Origin: a virus
Strand: one strand, 5' to 3'
DNA length: 64,000 nt
IMG/VR virus record: IMGVR_UViG_3300017782_000001
Shown: positions 16,165-49,285 of the stretch, one piece after another
Layout of the letters: each line of letters opens with the position of its first letter
Position numbering within the stretch: position 1 is the stretch's first letter
The notes under the pieces: generated by a model
Seen by the model: only the letters and a program-made list of their open reading frames with translations
Database searches by the model: none
Told to the model about the DNA's origin: nothing
Translations under genes and position numbers: made by a program

Positions 16165-17493
16165 CTATGCAAGAATGTTGTCAACTCTAAAGATACGGAA
16201 GTACTGGTTAGACTTCACTGTACCCAGACCGTTGTTAGCGATAGCACCCGGAGTAAATGGGTTACCTGCCATGCCGTAACGTGTCTTAAAGCCAATCTTT
16301 GGCTGGAATGTATCTTCACCAACCGCTCTCACCATTGTTAGCGGAACGTATGGACAGTAGAAGATACCTGCGTCATATGGGTTAGTACCCTTATAACCAA
16401 CAGTAACGTAGTCAGCAGTTGCATATGGGTCAATGTAGACCTTTGTGCGACCGTTAAGAACACCGGCAAATGTATTACCTGTGTCATCTACCTGCAAGTT
16501 AACTGACAATGCAGGAGTGTAATCCAGCATGCCTGAAGCAGCTAGAGCAGAAGCTACGTCTGAAGATGTGATAAGGAAGTTACCACGGCCTCTACGTGTT
16601 TCTTTAGCAATCGTGTTTGCTTCTCTTTCGATCTGTACAATCAGACCTTTGAACTTCTCAACTGACCAACGGCCGTCTGCATCTGTTGACAAGTCAAAGA
16701 TACCATTAACCGCAGTGTTGCCAGTAGCAGCACCAGTTTTTGCCTGAGAGTTAATGGTTCTGATAACCTCACGGTTAATTTCAGCCATGATCTCAGCAGA
16801 CAAGATGTTTGCTAGTTCTGTTTCAGCATCCAAGCCATGAATAGCTTTAAGATCCTGAGCAAGTTCCAGTGAGTATTCAGCTTTCAAAGCACGTGACTTA
16901 GCTGTCACAGTTTGCTTTTCAATGGTGAAACCCATCTGAGCGAAAGAGTTGCTGGCAGAATCGCCAAGTGCTTCAGCAGAGTCTGTTGCCATACCCTGTG
17001 TAGCAAGTGCAGTTGCACGATCGTCATCAGCAGATGAGTCAGAATCAGTTGCAGAACCGAGACCGGATCCGTCTGATGGCTGAGCCGCACCGGTTTGTGT
17101 ACCGGAGAAGCGAGTATCTGCTTCGTTAAACAATGCTTCTGTTGAGCCAGTTGTACCGGCACCATAGCGTGACTTCATTGCGAAGATCAAGCCAGTTGGA
17201 CCTGACATTGGCTGAACACCAGCAACATCATAGGCCATAAGGTTAGGCATCGCACGTCTTACAAGTGAGATCAACACTGGATCCCATGTGCCGATAGAAG
17301 CAGTGTTTGCACCAGCAGGTGAAGCTTCATAAAGGCCGTGTTGTTGTGCGCGCTCTTCACGGAGAGCGATTTCTTGGTTTTCCAGAATTGCTGCTGTTAC
17401 AGCTTTTCTGTGGTTATCTTTAATGGCACCAGCTGATTCTTCATTCAGTACTGGGGCCCACTTTTCGATCAAGTTATTATATGTATTCTGCAT
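16165..17493 (-). CDS. gp23: major capsid protein
   Basis: GVQPMSGPTGLIFA, SRALKAEYSLELAQDLKAIHGLDAE, QPKIGFKTRYG. Confidence 0.99.
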   Translation of the reverse strand: MQNTYNNLIEKWAPVLNEESAGAIKDNHRKAVTAAILENQEIALREERAQQHGLYEASPAGANTASIGTWDPVLISLVRRAMPNLMAYDVAGVQPMSGPTGLIFAMKSRYGAGTTGSTEALFNEADTRFSGTQTGAAQPSDGSGLGSATDSDSSADDDRATALATQGMATDSAEALGDSASNSFAQMGFTIEKQTVTAKSRALKAEYSLELAQDLKAIHGLDAETELANILSAEIMAEINREVIRTINSQAKTGAATGNTAVNGIFDLSTDADGRWSVEKFKGLIVQIEREANTIAKETRRGRGNFLITSSDVASALAASGMLDYTPALSVNLQVDDTGNTFAGVLNGRTKVYIDPYATADYVTVGYKGTNPYDAGIFYCPYVPLTMVRAVGEDTFQPKIGFKTRYGMAGNPFTPGAIANNGLGTVKSNQYFRIFRVDNILA

Positions 17494-34081: not shown

Positions 34082-34657
34082 TTATACAAAATCAGGTCCG
34101 CGGACCCAACCTACAAGAGCTCTTCTTGTTCCTTTAGTAACAGGAGAAACTCTATGTAGAAGATATGAAGGAAATAACATTATATCCCATTTATTCATAG
34201 GAATAGAAACTGGTTCTGGTCCTGTGAATAATTCAAAATCTCCTCCTTCAAAATCATCATTTAGTAAAATAGAAAAGGATAACTTTCTACCTTGTCCTTC
34301 ACCATCTTTTAGCATATTATCAATATGCCAAGTGTAATGTCCATTTTCTGGGTATTCACTATATTGTAAGCTTTCAATATAATTCAAAGCAAAAGAATAT
34401 TTTCCATTATTACTCATTTCAATTTTATGAGCTATATCATAGTAAATGTGTCGAGTATCTTCAGTTGCTTCAATCCATAATATATCAGATTTTCTTATGG
34501 AGCTATCGTTTCCATCTTTTTCAGGATTATTAATTTCAGCAGGCTGTGTATCATTAGCTTCAATATAGTTAACTAACTGGTTTATCCCATCTTTTGAAAA
34601 GCAATTAGGAATAATGGTTTCCCAAGAAGTTGGATTAGGATCTCTAAGAGCTAGCAT
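34082..34657 (-). CDS. 2OG-Fe(II) oxygenase
   Basis: WHID, RKLS, FEGG, FPSYLLHRV.PV, TR..LVGW. Confidence 0.92.
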   Translation of the reverse strand: MLALRDPNPTSWETIIPNCFSKDGINQLVNYIEANDTQPAEINNPEKDGNDSSIRKSDILWIEATEDTRHIYYDIAHKIEMSNNGKYSFALNYIESLQYSEYPENGHYTWHIDNMLKDGEGQGRKLSFSILLNDDFEGGDFELFTGPEPVSIPMNKWDIMLFPSYLLHRVSPVTKGTRRALVGWVRGPDFV

Positions 34658-36462
34658 TAATTAGGCACCTTTACAATTTTACCAATTTCTGGAAAATAAC
34701 AATATTCAATATCAGAATTTTCAAGAGTCCTAATAGCATCATTTATAGTTTCAACTAAAGGCTCACCACCAAGATTAAATGAAGTGTTGAATACAATAGG
34801 CATACCTGTTTTACGCTTAAATTCTTTAATTAGCGCGTGATAAGATGGATTTTCTTTTTCACTTACTGTTTGAATTCTACACGATCCATCGGTATGAATA
34901 ATGCTTGGAATTTTTGCTTCAACACCTTCTTTACAATTTACGGCGTACATCATATGCGGAGTTTTTTCCATGCCCCTTAAATCAAACCAATCATGTACAT
35001 CTTCTTCAAGAATTGTTCCTGCAAACGGCCTGAAATACTCACGATTTTTTACTAGATTAACGTAGTCTTTGCCATCTTCAAATGAAGGATCAAACAAAAT
35101 AGATCTATTACCTAAAGCTCTAGGTCCATTTTCAGATTTCCCTTGAAAGATTGTCACAATATTCTTTTGTGTTAACAAATCTACTACACCTTGATTATCA
35201 CAATCATAAATTGTATCACCTTCTGAAAGAAGACTTTTTATATCGTTTTCATCATAATCATATTCAGGTCCTAAGTATAACGTACTTCCATAATCTCTAA
35301 TTTCTTCATCATTAGAAATTAAGTAGTGATGATAAAGTGCTGCACCAATCGCAGTACCTGCATCATTAGAAACTGGCTCTACATATAATTCAATTTCTTC
35401 GTCTTTAAGTTGTTCAAGGAACCAATAGTTAGCAACACAATTCAAAGCATATCCGCCTGAAATAACAACATTTCTCTTACCTGTCATTTCAACAGCTTTT
35501 CTAATAAGCTTCAAAAGTTCTTCTTGTGTTTCTATTTGACATTTGTAAGCAACATCTCTAGCAATATTTGTTTTAGTCATATCGCCTTGACAGCTTTTCA
35601 TTTCTTCTTCTGTAGGCTGGAATTGACTATAGAACATAGCATTCAAAAACGCTGCATTAGGCGTATTTGGCGTAAAAATATTTCTATTAAATGAGCCTGG
35701 GATAGGAGAATCTGGATCAAAGAACGGAGGTAGATTTTTATTTGGTAAACCATAAGGAAATAAACCCATTGTTTTACCAGCTTCAATTGGCTGCCAACCA
35801 AGATATTGTGTAATAGCTTCGTAAACTTTAGTAATTCCGCCTCTATCATCAACAGCTAGTTCAATTTCATTTCCAGGTTCACCAATAAACTCTGCATCTC
35901 TTTTTCCAATTTGAGGAAAAATTGGATTTCTACAACCAACATGTTTATACTTTGTTTGGAAAACTGCAGGATAAGCACATTCAATAATAGATTCATATTC
36001 CCATACAGTTTCTTCGCCTGCAATTGGATCTTTATAATTTAGCATAGATCCAGCACCATCTGCAATAACAGCAACAGCGTCTTCAAATGGAGATCTATAA
36101 AACGCTGCAGCAGCATGCATTTTGTGGTGATTATCGGAAACTTCAATTACTTGAGGATGTTCACCACCGTATTCATCTCTAGCATCAATTAAATGCATTT
36201 TACGAGCAAGACCAGTATATACATCATCTCCACTAAAATCTACTTTAGCTCCCATATACAAAGGTTGAGTATGAGAAATGATCAGATAATCAATTTTATC
36301 GGTATATTCTTTAATTTTCATCATAGCAGCATAAGGGCCACCATCATATTTTTTACGAGAAAGTCTTTCTTCTTCAATAGCAAAAACAACTTCACCGTTT
36401 TTCAATAGACACACTGCAGCGTTATGACCTCTTGAAATACCAGCAATCCAAAAATCTTTCAT
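34657..36462 (-). CDS. carbamoyltransferase (NodU/CmcH/TobZ family), full length
   Basis: EEERLSR.K, HH..HA, GKTMGL, GPRALGNRS, RPFA, NTSFN. Confidence 0.94.
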   Translation of the reverse strand: MKDFWIAGISRGHNAAVCLLKNGEVVFAIEEERLSRKKYDGGPYAAMMKIKEYTDKIDYLIISHTQPLYMGAKVDFSGDDVYTGLARKMHLIDARDEYGGEHPQVIEVSDNHHKMHAAAAFYRSPFEDAVAVIADGAGSMLNYKDPIAGEETVWEYESIIECAYPAVFQTKYKHVGCRNPIFPQIGKRDAEFIGEPGNEIELAVDDRGGITKVYEAITQYLGWQPIEAGKTMGLFPYGLPNKNLPPFFDPDSPIPGSFNRNIFTPNTPNAAFLNAMFYSQFQPTEEEMKSCQGDMTKTNIARDVAYKCQIETQEELLKLIRKAVEMTGKRNVVISGGYALNCVANYWFLEQLKDEEIELYVEPVSNDAGTAIGAALYHHYLISNDEEIRDYGSTLYLGPEYDYDENDIKSLLSEGDTIYDCDNQGVVDLLTQKNIVTIFQGKSENGPRALGNRSILFDPSFEDGKDYVNLVKNREYFRPFAGTILEEDVHDWFDLRGMEKTPHMMYAVNCKEGVEAKIPSIIHTDGSCRIQTVSEKENPSYHALIKEFKRKTGMPIVFNTSFNLGGEPLVETINDAIRTLENSDIEYCYFPEIGKIVKVPN

Positions 36463-37415
36463 TATGTTCTCCCAGCAGCTGCTGCTACTTTAGCATCTAC
36501 TTCTTTACAAATTTCTCTAACTGCGGCATCATCTAGATACATAAGTCTGTCGTGTGCACGCGCATATTCATCTTCCATAGTAATACGGATAGGGTCATAT
36601 CTACGCTTTCCTTCGCCTAAATCAAGAACCTGAAAGGTTTTTGAATCTGGATAAGAAATATTCTCAGGATATGTTGAACCTACAACTACAACAGAAGGAA
36701 CATCTAATGCATAAGCCATGTGCTGTCCTACACTATCACAACCGATAAAACAATCTGCCGCATTAATAATTCCAGCCCAATGTCTTAAAGGAGCACCTTC
36801 AGGTTGAGCGACTGGTTGATTACATCCTAGCTTTTGATAATCTGTAGGAAACTCAGACATTAAAATAATAGCGTATTTTTCTTGAAGTTTTTTAATAACT
36901 TTTACAACATCATCCGGTCTAAATGATCTTCCTCCAGGATCAGCAATCGTATCACCAAAGGGTTGTGTAGATCTACCGAAAGGTTGAAAAACAATTAATC
37001 TTTGTTTAGAAGTTTTTTCTTTTACTTCACGAACAACCGCAGCTCCTTCTAAACCTTCAGGTGTATTAAGCACAAGAGTAGGTTTATTCATAGGCCTTAC
37101 GCCTTTAGAGCTCATCTCAATATCAAAAGCTTGAGTGATATTTGCTTTTTGGTTATAATACTCCCAAATACGATATGGCTCAAGACTTACACAATCTCTA
37201 GATTTGATCTTTTCTTCAAAAAGACCTTTATGCCAATTATCAAATACTCGTTTATGGAGAGTTGGGTGGCCATGGAACATGTCAGTTCCGCCTTCACAGA
37301 TAATGATAAAATCATCATCTGGATTTTCTTTTTCATACATTTCGAAAGCTGGAATAGAGCTAATAACTCTACCGGCGCCTCCGTTGACGAAGAACGCCTT
37401 TGATCTATTTTTCAC
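36462..37415 (-). CDS. GT9-like (ADP-heptose-type) glycosyltransferase
   Basis: GGAGR, FQPFG, FIGCDSVGQHMAYALDVPSVVVVGST; GTG start with GAGGTG SD. Confidence 0.8.
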   Translation of the reverse strand: MKNRSKAFFVNGGAGRVISSIPAFEMYEKENPDDDFIIICEGGTDMFHGHPTLHKRVFDNWHKGLFEEKIKSRDCVSLEPYRIWEYYNQKANITQAFDIEMSSKGVRPMNKPTLVLNTPEGLEGAAVVREVKEKTSKQRLIVFQPFGRSTQPFGDTIADPGGRSFRPDDVVKVIKKLQEKYAIILMSEFPTDYQKLGCNQPVAQPEGAPLRHWAGIINAADCFIGCDSVGQHMAYALDVPSVVVVGSTYPENISYPDSKTFQVLDLGEGKRRYDPIRITMEDEYARAHDRLMYLDDAAVREICKEVDAKVAAAAGRT

Positions 37416-37449
37416 TTTTTGCACCTCACGTGAACATTTATTTAGTAAT

Positions 37450-37478
37450 ATTATACAACATTTTTTAACCATTGTACA
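37450..37478 (-). promoter_or_regulatory. early promoter TGTACA-N17-TATAAT (late-like CTAAATA at 37439-37445)
   Basis: exact spacing. Confidence 0.75.
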
Positions 37479-37509: not shown

Positions 37510-38277
37510 TTAGACTACGAGTCTTCCATTGGAATCGTATGTTCCTCCAGATACTCCACCAGGATCGCCTCCTGCAACATCTGGCTCTTCAGATCCATTA
37601 TCAACAGCACTAGGATCTGCTTGCCCTGGGAACATTGCTGTTACTACATTGTGCGGCATTAAGCCTGCAGCTTTGTATTTTGCAATTTTATTTACATTAT
37701 CGCTATCCCAGTCTTCCCAAGCCTGTTTAACATCTGCAGATAAAGCATTCCATGTTTCAGTATCTGCTTTTGTGTCAAGATAAAGATCGTGGCATGATGC
37801 TAAACTACCTTCAACACTTGTCCAAGATATAAAAGGAGGGAAATATGGCAGAGGTCTTTTTAGTTTATTAGTTTCAACATCCCACTTAACCTTGTTTCTA
37901 TCATATGTATGATCAGGTGCCGGCGGATGAATTCTTTTGTAAACTAATCCATCTGGCAGTGTGATTGACTTATGAGGAAAAACGTTAGAATCTCCTAAAT
38001 CAGAATCAGGATTCGGGTCATACATTGATGCAATTAATGCGCCTTCTGCAGTATTTGTATCAATTAAAAAGTGCCACTCATCCTCGGATAAAGTATCTTC
38101 AAAGTTATCTGGATCGTTGAGCGCTGTTACGTTTTGGACAATATATGAAGCATTACATTCTACATCATAGAATCTAGGACCTTTCCAAGTCCATGATGCG
38201 GATGAATCATTGTCATCTGTTAAATGAGTATAGTCATCTGCTACTTTATAAGTAAATTGTTTAGTTGTTTTTTCCAT
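37510..38277 (-). CDS. hypothetical protein, possibly fibre-assembly chaperone
   Basis: TAATG-coupled to last Cys-rich gene; function inferred from position only. Confidence 0.55.
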   Translation of the reverse strand: MEKTTKQFTYKVADDYTHLTDDNDSSASWTWKGPRFYDVECNASYIVQNVTALNDPDNFEDTLSEDEWHFLIDTNTAEGALIASMYDPNPDSDLGDSNVFPHKSITLPDGLVYKRIHPPAPDHTYDRNKVKWDVETNKLKRPLPYFPPFISWTSVEGSLASCHDLYLDTKADTETWNALSADVKQAWEDWDSDNVNKIAKYKAAGLMPHNVVTAMFPGQADPSAVDNGSEEPDVAGGDPGGVSGGTYDSNGRLVV

Positions 38278-39206
38278 TAGTCGTCTGCCCAATCCCCGTC
38301 CCAAGTAATTCTAATAGCACCGTAAGATCCTTTTTCACCACAACAACATGGGGCGGCGTATGTTGCAGCTGATAGTCCACCTTCTCCAGGAAGTCTAGAA
38401 TACCAAGATGATCCAATTGTTGAGTGTGCCATTCTTCCTGATGCACCATCATGAATATCCATGAAACATTGACAATAGTACATAAGACCTTTATGGTGTA
38501 CACCACCTTTAGCGGCTCGGTTAAACATATGCCAACCGCCTGGGAAAGCAAGTCCTGTTTTAATACCACAGGCGTTTGCTTCTTGCCAAGATCCACAACA
38601 ACCTACCTGGGCCCATGAATGAGAACCACAAGATCCTGTTTCAGTGCCGTAATATTTAGCAACTCTATATGGATCAGAGTCAGATTCACCAACTCTACGT
38701 CCAAGCAAATCACACATGTACATATATTCGTTATGTCTATAGTTTACAAAGAAATAACAACACGTTACGCCAGGATTACCACCTTCTGCACAAAAATTAG
38801 TAAGGCCATCACCCATAATATATGTTTTACCACCTCTAAATCCGCATTGATGGTTTGCTGTACAAAAGTAACAACACTGCTTGTCAATAGGATTACATGC
38901 AATATAACATTGACCTGGAGTTACATTAATAGTTTTATATGCGTAAGCACCGGAGCCACCTGGAATGCCTTGTTGACAACATGCAGCTCCTGCTCCATTA
39001 CCACCAGCGCCCCAAATTTCAAAGGTCGCTAGGCGTGCTCCTTGTGGAACTTTCCAATGGAATCTATCTACGCCTCTTTCGTTAGTGACTTGATCAGCAC
39101 CGTGACTCCACCCTTCAGGACCGGGTTTCCAGAATACGGTCTGACCGTGAAATCTACCAATTGCCATATCTGTGGCCGGTAGAAGGGTTCTGAGTTTTTT
39201 AGCCAT
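38277..39206 (-). CDS. Cys/Gly-rich putative virion adhesin, paralog A
   Basis: FEIWGAGG.GAG..CC, GGSGAY, CCC...GAIRIT. Confidence 0.7.
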   Translation of the reverse strand: MAKKLRTLLPATDMAIGRFHGQTVFWKPGPEGWSHGADQVTNERGVDRFHWKVPQGARLATFEIWGAGGNGAGAACCQQGIPGGSGAYAYKTINVTPGQCYIACNPIDKQCCYFCTANHQCGFRGGKTYIMGDGLTNFCAEGGNPGVTCCYFFVNYRHNEYMYMCDLLGRRVGESDSDPYRVAKYYGTETGSCGSHSWAQVGCCGSWQEANACGIKTGLAFPGGWHMFNRAAKGGVHHKGLMYYCQCFMDIHDGASGRMAHSTIGSSWYSRLPGEGGLSAATYAAPCCCGEKGSYGAIRITWDGDWADD

Positions 39207-39232
39207 TCTTTACACCTTTACAATACTAAAGC

Positions 39233-39251
39233 TATTTATACTTTATTTATA
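39233..39251 (-). promoter_or_regulatory. two tandem late promoters TATAAATA
   Basis: exact copies at 39244-39251 and 39233-39240. Confidence 0.75.
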
Positions 39252-40463
39252 CTTTACTACAACTAATCCTTGCCCAGACCAGCCACCACAACATATACCA
39301 TTACCTCCGCAATGTTTACCTGTAGCACCTCCAAAGCCAGCGGTTCTAATATTCGAATAACATAACTGGTTATTTGAGCCATTATGACATAAGTACCATT
39401 GACTCCATTGGTAACCGCCTCTTGCCATAGAACTATTTATAGAAGTATGATTAAACATCGCCACTCCAGTCCTAGGACATGAGACTGACGAATAATATTT
39501 ATTTGAACATGACCAATCTGAGCATCCATTATAACATTCAGAAGCAACATGTCCAGCCATTTGAGATGGATCACCACTAGGTTGATGCATAACATCTCTC
39601 ATTGCATTTTGGAAGGTTCTTACACATGTACCCCATGCTGCGCATCTTTCACCGTGATGGACATCGCACCGAAATTGAGTATCATGGTATCCTTGGTTAA
39701 TAAGACATCTTCCCTTTGGAACACAGTTTTTGTTGTTTCTTATAAATCCTGCATATTTACCTGTCATCCAAGGGCGTCTTTTGTCAGAACTTAAATTATC
39801 AAACGATTCCATTCCTCTACCCGCTGGAAAGCCTCCATTATGATGACATCCATACTTATACAGAGTATGTTGCCGACCTGGTGAACTATCACTATCGTTT
39901 TCTACTGCTCTTAGCCTGCTAGGACCACCTTGTCCGGTTCTATCATAGCAACAATAATCAAAGAAACATTGAGAAGCACCACACATGCCGCCGCATACAC
40001 ACAGACTTCCTTGGTTTTGTTTCCAATCATCAATGTGACTATGTTTACCATAATAAGTTGAAAATACACCACTAAAACACCCGTGGTTCCCTTGCCTTCT
40101 TGAAATACAACATCCACCGTGAGAAACAACATAGCAAAAAACTTCGCCTGGTTGTACATCCATGCAAGCTCTTCCATAAGCACCACCAGAGCCAGGTACA
40201 CCTTGAGTACAACAGCACCCACCGCCACCTCGGCCACCAGCACTCCAAACATCGATAATCGCTGATTTAGGTAATGGTTCGTATAAATTACCTTGACTTT
40301 GTGTTACACCATGAATACAAAACCGGCCGCATTCAGATCCATATATAGGATCCCAATAGCTACTTGCTTCACATCTTTGTTCGTAAAAAATTGCTTCACA
40401 ATAATCTGCTGTAGGCGTTACGTCAGCTAATCCAGGAGCAAAATTTCTTAAGTATTTAGCCAT
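39243..40463 (-). CDS. Cys/Gly-rich putative virion adhesin, paralog B
   Basis: MA..R.FAPG.ADVTPT N-terminus, WSAGG, CCC, LCHNGS. Confidence 0.7.
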   Translation of the reverse strand: MAKYLRNFAPGLADVTPTADYCEAIFYEQRCEASSYWDPIYGSECGRFCIHGVTQSQGNLYEPLPKSAIIDVWSAGGRGGGGCCCTQGVPGSGGAYGRACMDVQPGEVFCYVVSHGGCCISRRQGNHGCFSGVFSTYYGKHSHIDDWKQNQGSLCVCGGMCGASQCFFDYCCYDRTGQGGPSRLRAVENDSDSSPGRQHTLYKYGCHHNGGFPAGRGMESFDNLSSDKRRPWMTGKYAGFIRNNKNCVPKGRCLINQGYHDTQFRCDVHHGERCAAWGTCVRTFQNAMRDVMHQPSGDPSQMAGHVASECYNGCSDWSCSNKYYSSVSCPRTGVAMFNHTSINSSMARGGYQWSQWYLCHNGSNNQLCYSNIRTAGFGGATGKHCGGNGICCGGWSGQGLVVVKYK

Positions 40464-41655
40464 GACACACCTTTTCGTCCCCAGGGGATCCTCTATATCT
40501 TAGTTGAACTAGACCTAATCCTCCCCAGCCACCACAACAACATGGACCAGCGCAAACTCTTGTAGGATGACCACCAAAGCCTACTGTTCTAATATTCGAA
40601 TAACATAACTGGTTATTCGAACCATTATGACATAAATGCCATTGACTTAGGTGCCATCCTCCATGGGCTAGCCAGTTATTATGTGATGTTAAATTCATCC
40701 ATCTTGGACCTGAAGTTCTAACTCCAGATTGAACTGTCGTATAATTTTTATCTCCACATCCCCAAGCAGCACAACCACTATAGCATGATGATACGGCGTG
40801 ACCATACCCGCCATAGCCGCCTCTATTTTGACCTACGCTAGATTGTCTAAAAGCTTTTTGACAAAACCCTGCAGCTGCACAATGTTCGCCTACAACTTGA
40901 TCACACCTATTGTTTACTGTTAAATCAGTACAGCAATGATTATAAGGACCATAGCAACATTTTGACACAGGTATATTATTCGCGTTTCTTGGTTTTTCAA
41001 GATCATATGAAGATTGAATCATACCTTCTAAATGAGGAGCACGGCCGTGATGCCAATGCGGTATTCTCGCATTATAGTTATCAGAAGGATATCTAATAGT
41101 GTCACCTTCATATTTCCATTGAGGAACTGGGTATGAGCTATCGCCACCGCCATCTATTTTTCTTTTACCATAAGTCCCGCCAGTACCTTGTCCGGTTCTA
41201 TCATAGCAACAATATCCAAAATAACAACAAACCGGGCCACATCGACCGCCGCAAGTACAGAAACATCCTTGAGCATTTGGAGATATTCTTACTGTTGTAA
41301 AACACCCGTGACACCCGACACGCGCGGGGAAACAGCATCCACCGTGAGCTACGACATAACACATACCCCAGCCTTCAGTCATTTGAACACAGCTTGACAT
41401 ATAGTTACCACCAGCCGCGGCTGGTCCTTGTTGGCAACAGTTACCACCAGCTCCTGCTCCTCCAGCAGACCACATTTCTAGTTTACCCCATTTAACTCCA
41501 GGAGGTGCACAGAATCTTCCGCAATTCGAACCGTAAATTACCGCACGATAGCTACTTGCTTCACATCTTTGTTCCCAAAAAATTGCTTCACAATAATCTG
41601 GCGTAGGTGTTACATCAGCGTATCCGGGAGCAAAGTTTCTTAATTTTTTAGCCAT
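40456..41655 (-). CDS. Cys/Gly-rich putative virion adhesin, paralog C
   Basis: same motifs; start re-set to TAATG junction at 41655. Confidence 0.7.
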   Translation of the reverse strand: MAKKLRNFAPGYADVTPTPDYCEAIFWEQRCEASSYRAVIYGSNCGRFCAPPGVKWGKLEMWSAGGAGAGGNCCQQGPAAAGGNYMSSCVQMTEGWGMCYVVAHGGCCFPARVGCHGCFTTVRISPNAQGCFCTCGGRCGPVCCYFGYCCYDRTGQGTGGTYGKRKIDGGGDSSYPVPQWKYEGDTIRYPSDNYNARIPHWHHGRAPHLEGMIQSSYDLEKPRNANNIPVSKCCYGPYNHCCTDLTVNNRCDQVVGEHCAAAGFCQKAFRQSSVGQNRGGYGGYGHAVSSCYSGCAAWGCGDKNYTTVQSGVRTSGPRWMNLTSHNNWLAHGGWHLSQWHLCHNGSNNQLCYSNIRTVGFGGHPTRVCAGPCCCGGWGGLGLVQLRYRGSPGDEKVCHG

Positions 41656-42776
41656 TATCGATACCTCAACATTACCATACCGTGTCCAGGCCAACCTGAG
41701 CAACAACATGGACCACCGCAAACTCTTGCCGCATTTCCAGAATGACCAACTACCCTAACATTAGAGTAACAATTATTATTATTTGATCCATTGTGACATA
41801 AGTGCCATTGAGACCAATTCCAGCCACCCCATGCATCAGCATTCACTGAAGTAAAGTTAATCCATCTTGGACCTGAAGTTCTAGTTCCAGATCCGGATTG
41901 ACCATATTTTTTTCCACCACATGAGTGCCAAGCTTGCTTCCCGCAGTTTTCTACCGCAACAAAACCAACGTGATATCCTTTTTGAATATTCGCATAGTTC
42001 ATAGTACATTCAGGTGCAGCACCTCTACAATCGCCAAGACAAGATTTTAGGTGTGTAGTTGCTTCTTTACATGCAAATTGTGATTGTTTTTTTCCACTTC
42101 CTGTACCCGGAACATGATTCCAGCCATCTTTATTTGTACGACTTCTATCCCAAGGTCTTCTACCTACCATAGTAGGCGCATACTTAGCACAAGGATCACC
42201 GTTAAAGAATTGACTACAACCACATCCATATTGATAGCGAGTTTTATCTCTCATGGTTCCATCCCAATCAAGTGCACCGCAATCTCTATTGTTACAACAA
42301 CTAAAGAAATAGCATTGTGAAAAACCGCACCATCCTCCGTTAATACACATCTCTGCGCATTCGTTGCCATGTTTCCAAAAACTGTAACACCTAGCGTCTG
42401 TTGTCGTTGGTTGACAACATCCGCCATGAGCAACGACATAGCAGTAATATCCAGGCTTTGGTTCAAAGCAAGCTTTCATATATGCTCCGCCGCCTGAAGG
42501 TGCGCCATCCATACAACAACATGATCCCCAAGAACTTCCTCCTGCAGACCACATATTTACTTGTAATTCACTAGGATCCTGATGGTCACATTCTTTTGAC
42601 CCATGACCTTGAGCACCAAATTTTGGAAACCACCATCTGCCACAGGATGAGCCATATATTGCACTTCGGTTTTGAGCTGTGTTTTGCCGTTGTTCCCAAA
42701 AAATTGCTTCACAATAATTTGGGGTCGGTGTAACATCCGCTAAGCCTGGTGCAAATTCTCTAAAATTCCTAGCCAT
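41655..42776 (-). CDS. Cys/Gly-rich putative virion adhesin, paralog D
   Basis: same motifs; start re-set to TAATG junction at 42776. Confidence 0.7.
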   Translation of the reverse strand: MARNFREFAPGLADVTPTPNYCEAIFWEQRQNTAQNRSAIYGSSCGRWWFPKFGAQGHGSKECDHQDPSELQVNMWSAGGSSWGSCCCMDGAPSGGGAYMKACFEPKPGYYCYVVAHGGCCQPTTTDARCYSFWKHGNECAEMCINGGWCGFSQCYFFSCCNNRDCGALDWDGTMRDKTRYQYGCGCSQFFNGDPCAKYAPTMVGRRPWDRSRTNKDGWNHVPGTGSGKKQSQFACKEATTHLKSCLGDCRGAAPECTMNYANIQKGYHVGFVAVENCGKQAWHSCGGKKYGQSGSGTRTSGPRWINFTSVNADAWGGWNWSQWHLCHNGSNNNNCYSNVRVVGHSGNAARVCGGPCCCSGWPGHGMVMLRYR

Positions 42777-43861
42777 TATCGATACTTCCAAATAATAGCG
42801 CCATTAATGCCTGGGCCACCACAACAACATGGTCCTGCACAGACTCGCGCTGGTTTTCCACCAGTTCCTACACTTCTTAAATTAGCAAAACACGTACTAC
42901 TACCGCTGCCATTATGACATATATGCCAATTTTTCCAATTCCAGCCACCCCATGCATTAGCATTCACTGAAGTAAAGTTAATCCATCTATGTCCTGAGGA
43001 TCTAATTCCAGATCCAGAAGTTACAAAGGGTTTTTCTCCACATGTAGCCCAGTTAACTTTAGCACAACACTGCATTTGAGAAACACCAATAGGCCATGCA
43101 TCAGGAGGTGAAGTCCACTTTTTTGAACATGTGCCAGATCCAGAACAACACTCAGTGTCTTCTCTAGTACAAGTTGTTGCATAAGGATCCACACCATTTA
43201 GTGGAATGCAATTTTTCCCACCAAGATTTTTAGTTTGTACATTTGAAGGATGTCTACCTATTTCACCGCCAGTAAAGCAGTTTGTACTGTTGAAATTTCT
43301 GGTGTAATCGCAGCTACAAGCCCATTTCCAAGTGGTTTGAGTATCATCATCAGGACCACAAACAGCATCGGGTCCTTGAGCAAACTTTCGTCCACCATCA
43401 CCCCATTGACTTCTATTACAACAATAATCAAAATAACAAGCGCTAACTCCGCACATGCCACCGATATTGCAGCTTGTACAACAAGTATCTTGATCTTTAA
43501 TAAGAGTAAAGCAACCATATGCTGCGGCCGCAGGCTGACAACATCCAGACGATCCTACGACATAACAATAAGACTTACCTTCATAAGCGCTGTAACAACC
43601 TCTCATATATATGCCACCACCAGCTGGTTGACCACTCATACAACAACATGATCCCCAGCCTATTCCGCCACCAGACCATCTATCAATTATTACATGTTTT
43701 GCAGGTGCATTGAGACAAAACCGACCACAGGCATGTCCATAAATGGCGCTTCGCTCGCTGTCGGGATTCTGTCTCTTCTCGAATACAATGAATTCGCACC
43801 AATCAGGTGTAGGTGTTACATCAGCGTATCCGGGAGCAAATTTTCTTATGTGTTTTGCCAC
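42776..43861 (-). CDS. Cys/Gly-rich putative virion adhesin, paralog E
   Basis: same motifs; GTG start. Confidence 0.7.
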   Translation of the reverse strand: MAKHIRKFAPGYADVTPTPDWCEFIVFEKRQNPDSERSAIYGHACGRFCLNAPAKHVIIDRWSGGGIGWGSCCCMSGQPAGGGIYMRGCYSAYEGKSYCYVVGSSGCCQPAAAAYGCFTLIKDQDTCCTSCNIGGMCGVSACYFDYCCNRSQWGDGGRKFAQGPDAVCGPDDDTQTTWKWACSCDYTRNFNSTNCFTGGEIGRHPSNVQTKNLGGKNCIPLNGVDPYATTCTREDTECCSGSGTCSKKWTSPPDAWPIGVSQMQCCAKVNWATCGEKPFVTSGSGIRSSGHRWINFTSVNANAWGGWNWKNWHICHNGSGSSTCFANLRSVGTGGKPARVCAGPCCCGGPGINGAIIWKYR

Positions 43862-43874
43862 CGGTTACTATCCC

Positions 43875-44765
43875 TTATCGATATGTTATTCGAATCTTAC
43901 CAGAGTTTGAAGTTGGAGAGCAACAGCATGTAGCTGCTCCAGTCCATGTGCCAGGTCTTCCCATACCGTATTCAATGTCGTATGGGTGACACGTACAAGA
44001 TCCACCCCAGAACAATCCTACTTTATTAGATAGGTTTTCTCCACCAAGTCCTTGAACACCTCTGCAGAAAAATCCTACAATGTGTCCTCCTCTTTTACTC
44101 CAATCGCCGCCGGGATATGGAACTCCATACTTCCAAGTATTTCCTTGACCTGGCTGATTATCGGTTGCACTATCTGCCATAGCAGAATCAGCTGGAATCA
44201 TTAACCAACCCGGCAATCCATAAGCTCCACCATCTGCACCATAGTATTTGGCACATCCGGAATCTTGTCCGTAAAAAAGTCTGTATCTAGAAGCTGAGTC
44301 TCCGGAATCAATATATTGTCTAGGACAACACGTATTAACTCCTGGGTATCCTTCTTCAGCGCAAAAGTTATTTAGACCTCGTCCAATAACCATAGCATTT
44401 CGCCATGATTCTCTAATGCCTGTTCTTTCAGACCGACAACACATGTGAATGCCAGCTTGTACATAGTAGCAGTCACCTTGTTTTACTGGAATAGGTCCTT
44501 TATAAGCATACGCACCAGATCCTGATGGTGTTGAAATTGAACAACATTCTGAACCAGCGCCTTGTCCACCTGCACCCCAAATTTCAAAGTAAGCACAAGT
44601 TACACCATTAGGAACACACCAATGCGTTTTATGTCTTAAATAAGCGCAATTATCTGCGTTTACTCCGTTGGTGTGTTTTGGAATGAAGTTCCATTCACAC
44701 CACCCATCCCAACGAGTATCGTCTTTTAGACCCGCTCTGATAAGATGTGTTAAATATTTAGCCAT
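43875..44765 (-). CDS. Cys/Gly-rich putative virion adhesin, paralog F
   Basis: closest to paralog A (FEIWGAGG, AYAYK, NFCAE, AKYYG). Confidence 0.7.
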   Translation of the reverse strand: MAKYLTHLIRAGLKDDTRWDGWCEWNFIPKHTNGVNADNCAYLRHKTHWCVPNGVTCAYFEIWGAGGQGAGSECCSISTPSGSGAYAYKGPIPVKQGDCYYVQAGIHMCCRSERTGIRESWRNAMVIGRGLNNFCAEEGYPGVNTCCPRQYIDSGDSASRYRLFYGQDSGCAKYYGADGGAYGLPGWLMIPADSAMADSATDNQPGQGNTWKYGVPYPGGDWSKRGGHIVGFFCRGVQGLGGENLSNKVGLFWGGSCTCHPYDIEYGMGRPGTWTGAATCCCSPTSNSGKIRITYR

Positions 44766-44793: not shown

Positions 44794-45213
44794 TTAGCCC
44801 TGAACCAGGAATTGCCAGCCGTTAGTGTCTCCGGACCAAACAAGTTGTAGGCCAATACCCATTGTATCGACAAGAATATCAGAATCTTGACCAAGAATCT
44901 TGTCTGAAGATGAAATTACCAAATGATTAGTTTGGAATTTTTGTTTTACGTCTACAATGTTTACTCTACCATCGCCAACAGAGTTACCAGATACACTTGG
45001 TAGTGTTATTGTAACTTCGCCGGTGGATGTATCTACAAAGTATCCATTATAGTTTGCTGCAGTTAAGTCTGAATCGATCAAAGACCATGCAATAGGAGGC
45101 TCAATTGAGTTTACCGCTTTAGCGATATAAGCGAGCTGTTCCGGACTTGCAGATGCGATTGACGTCTCAAGCTTGTTGACTAGCGCTGTCTTTACGGTAT
45201 CAACGGTTGCCAT
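44794..45213 (-). CDS. small virion/fibre-associated protein
   Basis: GYFVDTS...TITLP...LVW....GW pattern of fibre beta domains. Confidence 0.65.
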   Translation of the reverse strand: MATVDTVKTALVNKLETSIASASPEQLAYIAKAVNSIEPPIAWSLIDSDLTAANYNGYFVDTSTGEVTITLPSVSGNSVGDGRVNIVDVKQKFQTNHLVISSSDKILGQDSDILVDTMGIGLQLVWSGDTNGWQFLVQG

Positions 45214-48200
45214 TTCTTATTCCTCTCTTAATTTTTTTGCCATCTAAAAGTTCTTTAGCGTCAAAGCCAATATATTGTTCAAACGCTATTTCTCCGGTTT
45301 GGCCTGTCCCCGGTAACGTTACAGTTCTGTTCTTATAAATTTGATCATCAACATAAGTTTTGACTGCAAATTCTGTTGGAACAGCGCTATTCGAAGCTCC
45401 CGACAAATTAGGATCTGCCGAGAATTCATTAATTGTTTCACCTAGCTTAGCTCCAATGGAACCAAGTCTCAATGATGTAAGACCTGCAAGGTCGAAGGCA
45501 GATGCATCTAGTGTTGCTCTACCAGTCGCCTGATCAATTCGGAAATAGTTACCTACTCTAAAGTTACCGTCTTGGTCAGTTGATACGTAAAAGACTCTTC
45601 CAGCACCTTTTTCTATAACCTCATTTCCTTGAGTTTTAGAGTAACCCGTTAAAGGAGAATTCGGATAATTAGTATTAGTAGCATTACCAGTACCAATATT
45701 TAAGAAATCATGGCCAGTTAGTCTTGTCTGAGAGTATCTATAACGAACTCTCGATGTTTGTCCGTGGAACGCTGGACTAGTAGCAAGCTTTTGTTGAGCA
45801 AATACTAGAGTAATTCGTCCACTTGTTGAATCCCAATCTTGTGTAGATTGAATAACATATGTAAATGAGTCATAACCTGAATCTGATGGATTACCTCCTG
45901 AAGTTACAAATTCAACCGATCCACCTTCAAGTGGTTCTGAGTCAAATCCTTCAAAGGCCATTGTAAATCCATACTGTCCGTGCGCAGTATCAGAGTCTAT
46001 GAGGATAGAATATACATTACCTCCAGATTCTTGAATCGAATCTCCTGACTTAAATCCAGATCCATCAATTTGATTTTCGACAATTAATCTTTGGATTGAA
46101 GTTAGTGCAGCAATGACTTTGCCTCTGGTTCCTTGATAAACCGCAGTACCTGAATCAAAATCTCCACCGGAATCTGTGAACTTTGCAGCTCCACCAGTTA
46201 CATAAGCACTGTTTCCTGAAGCATCATATGTAGGAGGATCAACAAGAGTAATTTCTTGGAAAAATCCAGCCGCCGAAGTGCTTTTACCTGAAGCCACATA
46301 GAGAGGACCTGTTTGTGCAGAATCAATAGTGATTTTATAAGCAAAGCTGTTTTTAGTGCCAGTAGCTCTTGAGTTAGTAACACCTTTTATAACTTCGCCG
46401 GTGTAATTACCAGCTGACCACTGACTTGAATCAGAAGTTGTTAGATAGAAAGGATTAAATCCTGTTGAGCTATCCAAAGTAAAGTAATATCTTGAACCTC
46501 TATACAACTGGAAGCCTGAGTCTCCAGTAATATTATAATCAGTTCCTACACCAATACCGCTTAAGTTAAATCCTGCTGAATCACCTGTAACTGTCCAGTA
46601 TTCATTTTCAGCTGTTCTTAGTGAGAAGTCGTTTGAAGTAATACTATCAACTAAGAAATACTTGTTGTTAACTTGACTCATACCAGTTACGCTTGAAACA
46701 TTGATAAGGTTATAGCTATCAAAGTTATGCGAAGCAACTGTAACAACAGCCGGATTAGATCTAGTAATATCAGTAATTGATGCGTTAGTTACACTTTTAC
46801 CGCCACTAAATCTTGTATCAAGAAGACTTGTTGCATTAGAGTCATTATATAAAGAGAAGTTAAAACTATCGACTTTTCTAATATGATACTCAAGTCCATC
46901 TGCAATACCGGCATCATTACCAATATCCGAATCCCAAAGACCAGAATCAGGCGATACATCATTAACATATCTATTTTTTAGAGAAGCAAGCCTAACTCTA
47001 TCATTATCTACAAGACCATGAGCAACTCTGGTTTTAACTACTCCTGGATTTGCTCTTGTAATAGTATCAATTGAAATGTTTTTATTAGGCTGGCGAATGA
47101 TATCACCATCTTCAAACTCACCATTTGTAATTGATCCATCTTTATAATCTATGGCAAATCCTCTAACAGTCCCATCATTTGATGTTTCATTAGAATCAAA
47201 GCCTGCTGACACAGCACCATATGTACCATATGAGTTGTTACCATTCAATGCTCTAATTTGTCCGCCAGAAGATGTAGCATAACCAATGTGACAATAATAT
47301 GTAAAGCAAGAAACAATTTCTGCTCTACCATTATTTCTTACCCAAAAGCCAATTCCATCTGAGTGTAAGTTAGTAAATGCATGAAAAACCATTGAGGCAT
47401 TTGTGCTTGAATCTGATTGTCTAGCAGCATCAAAGTGGCCACCGTCAACAATAGCACCAATTCCTCCGGTTGAAAACGCCGAGCAATCTTTAATATACGG
47501 TGACTTTGTTGAAATTGCAAAGTTTGGATCAAGCTTAAAGTAAGCGCCTTTTCTTCCAGTTGACAATTCAGGATTTTGATCATCGCCAGAATCTGGAACA
47601 AATCCAGTAAGACCTCTAAATGTCATACCTTCAACTAATGTAGCATCTCTCATAAAGAACATGGCATCAGCTGAATCATATCCTGGTGAAGGCTGAACTC
47701 TTGTAGTTCTTAAACCTTGGCCATGCATAGTAGTGTTATGAGGAATATGGATTGGAAGAATTTCTTTATAATCGCCATTAGCAACAAGAACAGTTGTTGA
47801 TGAATCCTTCGTAATATTTTTATCGATAAAGCGCATTGCAAAGTTAATTGTCTTAAATGGCGCATTAGCAGATTTACCATAATCGGAATCATCAGTACCA
47901 GCATCAACAGAAATATAGAATGTATTTTTTGTATCGTCTGGATATGAAAGTGAATATCCAGAAGCTGTGCTATTAACTGTAATTACTTTACCAATATCAG
48001 ATGAATCAATTACTGGAAGAATATTGTCTCCGCCTGCAACAAAAAGATCAAAGAAAGAATCTGCTAAATCATTAGCAAAGTTTCCTGTTGAAGTAAAATC
48101 TTGTTTTGCAATATAAACTGATGTTGCTGTACTAACCAAATCATCTATTAGGTATTCAGAACCTGATGCATATGCACCTCTGAATCTAATACCTGAATTA

Positions 48201-49285
48201 TACTTTTCCCAATTTCCATTTGCAAGATCTGAGTCAAAGTTTGAAGTAGAAGCATGAGGAAGAATAGAAATATAGTTATTTCCTCCTCTATTAACAACTA
48301 CATCAATACCGTATTCAACGCTTGAGTCCCAATCTGCTTGATAATCAATACCTGGAACAACCTTTGTCCAATTTGCAGTTACTGTAGGCTTAACATTCAA
48401 GCTGTTTGTAGCAGCTTTGAAAACAGATCCACCATACCTTACAGTATCACCTGTATAGTATTGTGTAGTATCGGCCCAATCACCATTGAAATTAAATCCT
48501 GAAACTACTAGCGACCAGCTTGCACTATCATTAGGATCTGTGCCTGCTACTGTTTGTCTTGCTCTATAAAGATCACCACCAAATTTTACAAGATCATTTG
48601 TAAAATACGTTGTGGCTGAGTCAAAACCGCCATCAATAAATTTAGTACCGCCAACATAAAGTTCCCAATATGTTGAGTTTGTTGGAACAATTCCGGCAGT
48701 AGTATTTTGTTTAGCTTTATAAAGGTTGGCACCATATCCTACAACGTCATCTTTCTTATAGACTGTAGCTTGGTTCCATACACCTTCATTGCCAATGCCG
48801 CTAATGAAAGGATCCCAATATGTATTATTTGTAGGATCATTCGATGTAGAATTTTGTTTTGCAATATAAGCAGACCCGCCGTATTTTACAACGTCATTTG
48901 CTTGATAATCAGTACTGGAATCATAGGAACCTTCCCACTGAATACCATCAACAAACTGAGACCAGTAGGAACTATTAGAACCTAATCCTGGATTTTTATT
49001 TGTTGACTGCGTTTGTGCAATGTATACTTTACCACCGTATGATACGCCATCACCGATGTTATAGCTTGAAGATGAGTCCCATACACCATCGAATGAGAAA
49101 CCTTCAAGCATTAATCTCCAATACGTAGTAGCCGTTGGAACGTTACCACTCGTTTTGAGATTGTAAATGTATACGTATACGTTACCGCCATATTTTACGA
49201 CATCATTTTGTTCGTAGGTTGTGGAGTTGCTCCACTGGCCGGCAAAGTAGAATCTTAATTTTCCTAGATCTATAACTTGTGTCAT
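45200..49285 (-). CDS. long fibre/spike: eight CBM5/12-like repeats plus pectate-lyase-like beta-helix region
   Basis: W....Y...D.V.YGG..Y...W repeats; APFKTI..A, GDYKE.LPI, GQGLRTT; STDQDGNFRVG. Confidence 0.8.
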   Translation of the reverse strand: MTQVIDLGKLRFYFAGQWSNSTTYEQNDVVKYGGNVYVYIYNLKTSGNVPTATTYWRLMLEGFSFDGVWDSSSSYNIGDGVSYGGKVYIAQTQSTNKNPGLGSNSSYWSQFVDGIQWEGSYDSSTDYQANDVVKYGGSAYIAKQNSTSNDPTNNTYWDPFISGIGNEGVWNQATVYKKDDVVGYGANLYKAKQNTTAGIVPTNSTYWELYVGGTKFIDGGFDSATTYFTNDLVKFGGDLYRARQTVAGTDPNDSASWSLVVSGFNFNGDWADTTQYYTGDTVRYGGSVFKAATNSLNVKPTVTANWTKVVPGIDYQADWDSSVEYGIDVVVNRGGNNYISILPHASTSNFDSDLANGNWEKYNSGIRFRGAYASGSEYLIDDLVSTATSVYIAKQDFTSTGNFANDLADSFFDLFVAGGDNILPVIDSSDIGKVITVNSTASGYSLSYPDDTKNTFYISVDAGTDDSDYGKSANAPFKTINFAMRFIDKNITKDSSTTVLVANGDYKEILPIHIPHNTTMHGQGLRTTRVQPSPGYDSADAMFFMRDATLVEGMTFRGLTGFVPDSGDDQNPELSTGRKGAYFKLDPNFAISTKSPYIKDCSAFSTGGIGAIVDGGHFDAARQSDSSTNASMVFHAFTNLHSDGIGFWVRNNGRAEIVSCFTYYCHIGYATSSGGQIRALNGNNSYGTYGAVSAGFDSNETSNDGTVRGFAIDYKDGSITNGEFEDGDIIRQPNKNISIDTITRANPGVVKTRVAHGLVDNDRVRLASLKNRYVNDVSPDSGLWDSDIGNDAGIADGLEYHIRKVDSFNFSLYNDSNATSLLDTRFSGGKSVTNASITDITRSNPAVVTVASHNFDSYNLINVSSVTGMSQVNNKYFLVDSITSNDFSLRTAENEYWTVTGDSAGFNLSGIGVGTDYNITGDSGFQLYRGSRYYFTLDSSTGFNPFYLTTSDSSQWSAGNYTGEVIKGVTNSRATGTKNSFAYKITIDSAQTGPLYVASGKSTSAAGFFQEITLVDPPTYDASGNSAYVTGGAAKFTDSGGDFDSGTAVYQGTRGKVIAALTSIQRLIVENQIDGSGFKSGDSIQESGGNVYSILIDSDTAHGQYGFTMAFEGFDSEPLEGGSVEFVTSGGNPSDSGYDSFTYVIQSTQDWDSTSGRITLVFAQQKLATSPAFHGQTSRVRYRYSQTRLTGHDFLNIGTGNATNTNYPNSPLTGYSKTQGNEVIEKGAGRVFYVSTDQDGNFRVGNYFRIDQATGRATLDASAFDLAGLTSLRLGSIGAKLGETINEFSADPNLSGASNSAVPTEFAVKTYVDDQIYKNRTVTLPGTGQTGEIAFEQYIGFDAKELLDGKKIKRGIRNGNR
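48030..49240 (-). repeat. eight approx. 50 aa tandem protein repeats (bounds approximate)
   Basis: visible in translation. Confidence 0.85.

Follow-up and report, generated by a model that had tools for sequence, protein, structure and literature searches.

A tandem array of six cysteine-rich, glycine-rich genes behind a tail fibre gene in the virus record IMGVR_UViG_3300017782_000001

Six tandem genes for cysteine-rich proteins

The window analysed here is the whole 64,000-nucleotide (nt) stretch of IMG/VR virus record IMGVR_UViG_3300017782_000001, the DNA of an uncultured T4-like phage from the sea. It carries a tandem array of six minus-strand genes, in the order F, E, D, C, B and A, that encode cysteine-rich, glycine-rich proteins and follow the gene for a 1361-amino-acid (aa) tail fibre (Table 1). 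A check of the open reading frames (ORFs) found all six at the positions given by a first-pass annotation made from the DNA letters, and the manual cysteine counts of that annotation (21 in A, about 36 in E) proved exact by composition count. Cysteine makes up 6.4-10.5% of the six proteins and glycine 14-16%, with 5-9 CC pairs and 1-2 CCC runs in each. They rank as the top six in cysteine among the 50 window ORFs of at least 150 aa, for which the median is about 1% and the next highest value 3.4%. The six-way alignment contains an invariant core, W-G-x-G-G ... C-C ... G-x-Y, comprising W63, G66, G67, G71, C74, C75, G84 and Y86, and all six proteins share the N-terminal peptide MAKxLRxFAPG. The N-termini (MAKxLR...), read by eye, agree with the earlier statement that signal peptides are absent and are the sole basis for it.

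The genes are closely packed. Overlaps of 1 nt occur at E/D, at D/C and between A and the gene for a 255-aa protein, and one of 8 nt at C/B; the other gaps are 13 and 36 nt. An alternative start of gene C is a TTG at 41721, upstream. A T4-type late-promoter-like motif, TATAAATA, precedes A, and of its 15 occurrences across the window, 14 fall on the minus (gene) strand, mostly just upstream of gene starts. The single strand, the overlaps or short gaps and the motif before A support the late-operon context that had been proposed for the array. No excess of intrinsic terminators over shuffled sequence was found within the array.

Seawater and viral metagenomes of at least nine studies contain the array in nearly identical form, sharing 0.91-0.98 of sampled words. 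Each of the six genes is partly covered, at 95-100% identity, by contigs of three RNA libraries; because these contigs also cover the neighbours and DNA carry-over is possible, this coverage is compatible with expression and no proof of it. One oligo-dT RNA contig has a loose run of 14 T before 45232, which would represent a poly(A) tail on a gene-strand RNA whose end lies some 30 nt short of the fibre stop codon; this isolated record may be artefactual. A low-depth DNA contig (X5) links 41851 with 45552 through 35 additional letters and lacks 3.7 kb of the array. The shorter side of this junction measures only 21 nt and may be a repeat or another strain; if real, the junction hints at variants of array size in the population.

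Table 1. Coordinates of the array genes and of the features around them
Feature	Position	Strand	Description
2-oxoglutarate (2OG)-Fe(II) oxygenase	34082-34657	minus	PF13640 E 3e-15; 23 loci
NodU/CmcH-type carbamoyltransferase	34657-36462	minus	PF16861 E 5e-57, PF02543 E 6e-28; 69 loci
GT9-like protein	36462-37472	minus	phrog_8954, E 3e-136; downstream of the array in 70 loci
255-aa partner protein	37510-38277	minus	phrog_9740; start overlaps the A stop by 1 nt; candidate assembly chaperone or structural partner
A	38277-39206	minus	309 aa, 21 Cys, 49 Gly; last-position paralog; phrog_4205 E 1e-42
Late-promoter-like motif TATAAATA	39233-39240	minus	T4-type; 27 nt before the ATG of A
B	39243-40463	minus	406 aa, 33 Cys, 60 Gly; middle-type, sister of C
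C	40456-41655	minus	399 aa counted from the conserved MAKKL start, 37 Cys, 64 Gly; middle-type
D	41655-42776	minus	373 aa counted from the conserved MARNF start, 33 Cys, 51 Gly; middle-type
E	42776-43861	minus	361 aa, GTG start, 36 Cys, 50 Gly; middle-type paralog
F	43875-44765	minus	296 aa, 19 Cys, 47 Gly; first-position Cys-rich glycine-lattice head protein (predicted); phrog_4205 E 8e-31
139-aa small protein	44794-45213	minus	between fibre and array; conserved in 28 loci
1361-aa tail fibre	45200-49285	minus	upstream of the array; homolog there in 68 loci

Fold of protein A and family membership

Among the six proteins, the fold was tested for A. The AlphaFold2 model, based on a 53-sequence alignment, has a predicted local distance difference test (pLDDT) score of 75.7 and a predicted template modelling (pTM) score of 0.80. 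Residues 1-16 have pLDDT values below 50 and contain one helix of 4 residues; the head starts at about residue 21, and a long N-terminal α-helical docking or trimerisation domain is absent. We searched the Protein Data Bank (PDB) with this model using Foldseek. The first match was the Pam3 fibre (7ypx, E 2e-5), followed by the Bxb1 tail tip (9d93, chains Qb and Qa, E 3e-5) and then by ALK/LTK. Structural alignment with VIA-align superposes residues 21-307 of the model on residues 78-279 of 7ypx_A, which is Pam3 gp24, with a Z score of 15.3 and a root mean square deviation of 3.3 over 187 residues. The Z score is 12.0 for Bxb1 9d93_Qb and 8-9.7 for the glycine-rich domains of ALK/LTK, and unrelated TNF-like folds come next, at Z 4. 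Compared with predicted viral structures, A is closest to homologs from S-CAM3 and P-SSM2, and then to many phage and giant-virus proteins labelled as glycine-rich domain-containing. As modelled, A has a TNF-like β-sandwich that runs into a polyglycine lattice. The first-pass annotation had placed glycine-rich, adhesin-type proteins in the tail-fibre module, and the match of A to the receptor-binding head of Pam3 gp24 and to the Bxb1 tail-tip proteins bears this out.

A Pfam scan of the six array proteins gave no match at E <=0.1, PF21722 (Gly_rich_2) included, and all six match phrog_4205, a family of unknown function. Five relatives (P0034, P0053, P0063, P0052 and P0013) lie above the PF21722 cut-off, with 26-39 bits against 24.3, and in four of these five the match spans nearly the whole profile. 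A search with A among 5.8 billion proteins returned 63 clusters, all of them cysteine-rich (4-12.5%) and several with a precomputed PF21722 label. Among 1.84 billion representatives, a profile built from A and its relatives retrieved 2269 proteins at E <=1e-3, 361 of them at <=1e-10; the median cysteine content of the top 150 library representatives is 8.7%. The same profile also retrieves cysteine-poor, multi-repeat glycine-rich proteins through the WGxGG...GGxGAY core (P0205 and P0213, at about 1e-21), and in those alignments the 'ccC' of the family faces glycine runs of the canonical domains. Because relatives pass the PF21722 cut-off and the profile aligns canonical repeats with glycine runs opposite its cysteines, the array family is, as judged from sequence, a large and divergent cysteine-rich branch of the PF21722 glycine-rich domain superfamily, in which cysteine appears to have replaced part of the polyglycine stretches. 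The receptor-binding complex had been called undescribed at first; for the fold this does not hold, since the PF21722 relatives and the Pam3 and Bxb1 structures show that the glycine-rich domain was already known.

Other routes to homologs were less productive. Neither megablast of the array nor tblastn of E against phage records gave a match; in several carrier phages the family is too divergent or of too low complexity for BLAST, yet it is found by hidden Markov model (HMM). A sequence search of solved structures with the family profile yielded nothing useful, and the ESM Atlas labels relatives only as viral 'hypothetical protein'. We found no paper that mentions PF21722 or Gly_rich_2, and none on cysteine-rich cyanophage structural proteins of the array type. 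The pelagimyophage paper that names a 'host recognition cluster' mentions neither glycine nor cysteine (PMC7029224). While the fold and a role at fibre ends are already known from Pam3 and Bxb1, and by analogy from S16 gp38, we found no earlier description in the literature of the cysteine-rich branch, its stand-alone form, the fixed multi-paralog arrays or the obligatory enzyme cassette described below.

Pam3 gp24 is the closest solved relative of the A model. It is a homotrimer whose head, a TNF-like β-sandwich with a polyglycine part, is assigned to receptor recognition, and its chaperone gp25 is encoded next to it (PDB 7YPX, 7YFW; PMC9608196, PMC9942802). The A model shares the β-sandwich that continues into a polyglycine lattice, and a candidate helper gene lies directly downstream. 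In contrast, Pam3 gp24 is the product of one gene and has a long N-terminal helical docking domain, whereas the window heads stand alone behind a peptide of about 20-45 residues. The window family has 6-10% cysteine and 3-6 distinct paralogs, whereas the Pam3 paper (PMC9608196) never uses the word cysteine. Pam3 gp25 and the 255-aa neighbour of the array show no structure match.

The tail-tip proteins Qa and Qb of Bxb1 (PDB 9D93) are, like the window heads, separate proteins, of about 230 aa, with the fold of A. The polyglycine-rich domains of mycobacteriophages are reported to lie on the central fibre of the tail tip (PMC13252515) and have been proposed to contact envelope components (PMC13252515; bioRxiv 10.64898/2026.07.24.740622). 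The carriers of the Bxb1 type differ from the present phage in being siphophages of Gram-positive-type hosts, and their proposed targets are lipids, reached by exposed hydrophobic loops. To our knowledge, the mycobacteriophage polyglycine proteins show no cysteine enrichment and form no fixed three-paralog array. The array family also resembles PF21722 and the TG domain of ALK/LTK, in that relatives pass the profile, canonical repeats are retrieved and ALK/LTK align with A; it differs from canonical PF21722 in that cysteine runs stand in for glycine runs. The ALK/LTK domain belongs to the ectodomain of animal receptors and is functionally unconnected with phage fibres.

The best functional analogy to a tip protein of this separate kind is gp38 of T-even phages and S16 (PDB 6F45), a small stand-alone adhesin with glycine motifs that is encoded after the distal fibre gene and sits with its N-terminal part on the fibre tip (PMC9608196, PMC3157838). 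The window heads likewise follow a fibre gene as separate glycine-rich proteins, and the gene order is analogous. Unlike them, gp38 has a β-helix without a TNF-like domain, and is a monomer encoded by a single gene. 6F45 is absent among the structural matches listed for A, which does not exclude a relationship.

Array composition, paralog lineages and the conserved cassette

A relative is encoded in 407 IMG/VR stretches. Copy number was assessed in 79 sources, namely 76 IMG/VR loci, two isolate loci and the window. Three copies are present in 60 of them, two in nine (several at contig ends), four in three, five in three and six in four. No source has a single copy; the one further locus that does ends inside the gene. 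A tree of 132 non-redundant family members shows that array position tracks clade, with 14 label changes against a mean of 62 after shuffling, and none of 200 shuffles was as low. The first-position clade that holds F and the middle clade that holds B-E (11 rows) each have 100% support, and C and B form a sister pair at 95%. The two subfamilies originally proposed (A with F, and B-E) are better divided into three groups: the middle group stands, but A and F are only 39% identical and fall into separate last- and first-position clades.

The six-gene arrays of L009 and L011 are duplicated triplets, in which the first gene groups with the fourth, the second with the fifth and the third with the sixth, and the five-gene array of L008 follows the same pattern. 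The lineage of the window (the window and L004-L007) has a single gene each of the first and last types and between two and four of the middle type; the window itself has 1 + 4 + 1. Arrays of the P-SSM2 type include only two cysteine-rich heads (in P-SSM2 itself, L002, 8701-9771 and 10500-11567), with a gene of the 255-aa family between them. At the N-terminus of each head, about 35 aa look helix-like from the sequence and are followed by a pure GGGGGG run, a layout nearer to Pam3 gp24 than that of the window proteins.

Pairwise identity among B-E is 74% over the N-terminal 30 aa and 43-59% over the C-terminal 90 aa or so, and falls to 11-22% in a centre of about 180 aa that is rich in indels and cysteines. 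Conserved ends with a hypervariable centre are the usual signature of receptor-binding proteins. In the Pam3 lattice, the distal loop tips are the variable part and are proposed to bind (PMC9608196). At the DNA level (window 39265-43861), the 5' and 3' ends of B-E are recognisable as repeat families (138-147 nt, 61-80% identity), and the gene centres cannot be aligned. These repeats fit either conserved docking or scaffold parts or gene conversion between paralogs.

The array lies directly after the 1361-aa fibre gene in more than 100 related loci, which confirms its proposed position behind tail fibre genes. Homologs of this fibre are annotated as 'tail fiber protein' in S-CAM1, P-SSM2 and S-SSM7. 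Near its N-terminus the fibre has carbohydrate-binding repeats of the CBM_5_12 type (E 4e-22). The 139-aa protein gives a weak match to PF07880 (T4_gp9_10_N; E 0.0011, below the cut-off) and matches PHROG tail proteins at positions 96-173, approximately, of proteins longer than 1000 aa. It is similar to the N-terminal part by which long tail proteins attach, and an adaptor role is possible. On the other side of the array, the GT9-like protein has a weak PF01075 match (E 7e-4, below the cut-off), and part of the carbamoyltransferase weakly matches the Kae1-like domain of HypF, also below the Pfam cut-off. Fibre gene, small ORFs, array, 255-aa gene, GT9-like gene and carbamoyltransferase gene lie on one strand in essentially every uncut locus. 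The same cassette accompanies distant cysteine-rich members, both the P-SSM2-type pairs and triplets of 250-aa proteins interleaved with two copies of the 255-aa family. Cassettes of the cultured carriers Sf-FS3 (L104, 9305-18586) and S-SSM7 (L103, 9311-20033) contain several 2OG oxygenases of the prolyl-4-hydroxylase type, and X-Pro-Gly motifs such as IPGG and FPGG occur in the heads. Hydroxylation of prolines in the glycine-rich heads by these oxygenases is conceivable.

A homolog of the 255-aa protein adjoins the array in 62 loci, and in L100-L102 its family is interleaved and duplicated with the array. The AlphaFold2 model (pLDDT 86.7) has a β-rich domain at 1-145 and a helical hairpin at 150-220. 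No convincing match to a solved structure was obtained with this model (best Foldseek E 0.47; in a wide VIA-align search Z <=6.4, to helices only), the matches being generic helical ones and a weak TssK-like row, and its sequence profile found nothing among PDB sequences. Because of the constant adjacency, the co-duplication with the heads and the β-plus-helix build, the chaperone role first proposed for the 255-aa protein is plausible by analogy: it could assist specifically in head assembly, much as gp25 does in Pam3.

A search of 50,697 phage records with the GT9-like protein yielded close homologs (at least 39% identity) only from S-CAM1, S-CAM3, P-SSM2, P-SSM5, S-SSM7, S-SSM6a, Sf-FS3 and four single-cell marine virus records. 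Cysteine-rich genes were found by BLAST or HMM in S-CAM1, S-CAM3, P-SSM2, P-SSM5, S-SSM7 and Sf-FS3 (S-SSM6a and the single-cell records were outside that search), and the 255-aa family is present in S-CAM1, P-SSM2, S-SSM7 and Sf-FS3. The major capsid protein of the window (16165-17493, minus strand) is closest to those of Phage C48C1, Methylophilales phage Melnitz and Pelagibacter phages HTVC008M and Mosig (61-66% identity), and slightly more distant from cyanophages. Because of these nearest capsid relatives, the host is probably a marine heterotroph. HTVC008M, Mosig, Melnitz and C48C1 were not among the phages recovered when the array or the GT9-like gene was searched for. The window has its fibre-head cassette in common with Synechococcus and Prochlorococcus phages despite a capsid of the SAR11/OM43-phage type; the cassette appears to pass between phage lineages with different hosts.

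Candidate receptor-binding tips and competing explanations

We lean, with modest confidence, towards the view that the six genes encode virion receptor-binding tips with non-redundant paralogs, which would be co-assembled into a mixed, disulfide-linked distal knob with the assistance of the 255-aa protein. The heads would be produced late, alongside the 1361-aa fibre whose gene immediately precedes theirs, and each may dock by its short conserved N-terminal peptide (MAKxLRxFAPG...) onto this fibre or onto the 139-aa adaptor-like protein. With the 255-aa protein helping head assembly, the first-, middle- and last-position proteins would then join in one knob; a mixed knob appears most likely because the paralogs are separate old lineages kept in fixed order. 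In the window phage, multiplication of the middle gene to four copies could provide four alternative binding surfaces. The cysteines occupy sites of canonical glycine runs and fill enlarged loops, and they would cross-link both lattice and loops, probably through disulfides that form when the virion reaches oxic seawater.

Several observations weigh against this proposal. One protein, A, carries the fold evidence, and residues 1-16 and 243-266 of its model are of low confidence. The six proteins themselves fall short of the PF21722 threshold, and the 255-aa model matches no known solved chaperone. At the deepest branches of the tree, the first-, middle- and last-position genes fail to form one clade apiece; the position rule therefore holds only within major lineages, and some triplications may be independent or homogenised. 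Neither the four-gene arrays (one first, two middle, one last) nor the 1 + 4 + 1 array fits a simple one-of-each trimer. None of the carrier phages is among the published virion proteomes; the cyanomyoviruses with such proteomes (S-SM1, S-PM2 and Syn9; PMC3037559) never turned up in our searches of phage records. Finally, over 204 family members (median cysteine content 9.6%; 26 alignment columns with at least 50% cysteine), odd cysteine counts are about as common as even ones (95 and 109). Not every cysteine can therefore be in an intramolecular disulfide; some thiols must be free, bonded between molecules or bound to metal. As an indicator of disulfide partners, the joint gain and loss of cysteine columns proved uninformative, since the correlated columns were clade-specific and confounded by relatedness.

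The odd counts also fit a variant of the proposal in which the same heads hold metal, as Zn, Fe or Cu thiolate clusters, in place of disulfides. Phages assemble in a reducing cell, where such heads would be stable. Closely spaced cysteine motifs are plentiful over the 204 members (648 CC, 289 CCC, 403 CxC and 409 CxxC), and B-E contain 7-16 histidines and a conserved block that reads W-H-L-C-H-N in D and C, W-H-I-C-H-N in E and W-Y-L-C-H-N in B. Nevertheless, we regard metal clusters as unlikely: neither the Pfam scan of the six nor the Foldseek search with A matched a known metal-binding family or fold, no metal chaperone is among the cassette genes that were looked at, and exposed thiolates oxidise in oxic seawater, the setting of the virion. 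A different objection concerns the mixed knob. Each paralog might function by itself, either monomeric, as T-even gp38 is, or homotrimeric, as Pam3 gp24 is, and cap its own fibre or compete for a docking site. The array would then amount to a set of alternative adhesins that broadens the host range, and not to one complex. All six proteins have a nearly identical docking-like N-terminal peptide, the window has at least three long fibre-like genes, the four-gene and 1 + 4 + 1 arrays are not divisible by three, and Pam3 gp24 is homotrimeric (PMC9608196). Such swappable tips would be expected to be gained and lost freely, yet three are kept in 60 of the 79 loci with an order that tracks clade, and the whole triplet is the unit of duplication in L008, L009 and L011. 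This makes independent tips a doubtful explanation, although we rate it a little above metal clusters.

It is far less probable that the proteins do not belong to the virion at all and are intracellular or released cysteine-rich proteins, for instance ones that serve the neighbouring sugar and carbamoyl enzymes as substrate or scaffold, or that coat the host surface. The published virion proteomes include no carrier phage, and the linkage to the GT9-like and carbamoyltransferase genes is tight. Sullivan and colleagues reportedly discussed, in 2005, lipopolysaccharide-like genes of the P-SSM2 type as acting on the host surface. On the other hand, the fold of A is that of fibre heads found in virions, no signal peptide is seen by inspection, and the genes are embedded, on the late strand, between a fibre gene and a chaperone-like gene. 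The linkage to the enzymes bears on the heads in another way. HypF carbamoylates a cysteine thiol of HypE. Because the array is so tightly linked to a carbamoyltransferase of the NodU/CmcH type, chemical modification of the heads is possible, and in a highly speculative extension of the tip model the carbamoyltransferase and the GT9-like protein would S-carbamoylate or S-glycosylate the cysteine runs. If true, the resulting mixed-chain, chemically decorated receptor-binding knob would represent a type of phage adhesin that has yet to be described.

The range of cells that a marine phage is able to kill is set by its tail-fibre tips, which are nearly unknown for the abundant oceanic T4-like phages. 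The family described here is widespread, with members in cultured phages of Synechococcus and Prochlorococcus and in uncultured phages related to the SAR11 and OM43 types, and the window adds to it a phage with a SAR11/OM43-phage-type capsid in which the middle paralog is expanded to four copies. Three features, should they prove correct, would be new for phage adhesins: a head made of different chains, a glycine lattice partly rebuilt from cysteine despite the reducing cytoplasm, and an obligatory link to enzymes of sugar and carbamoyl transfer.

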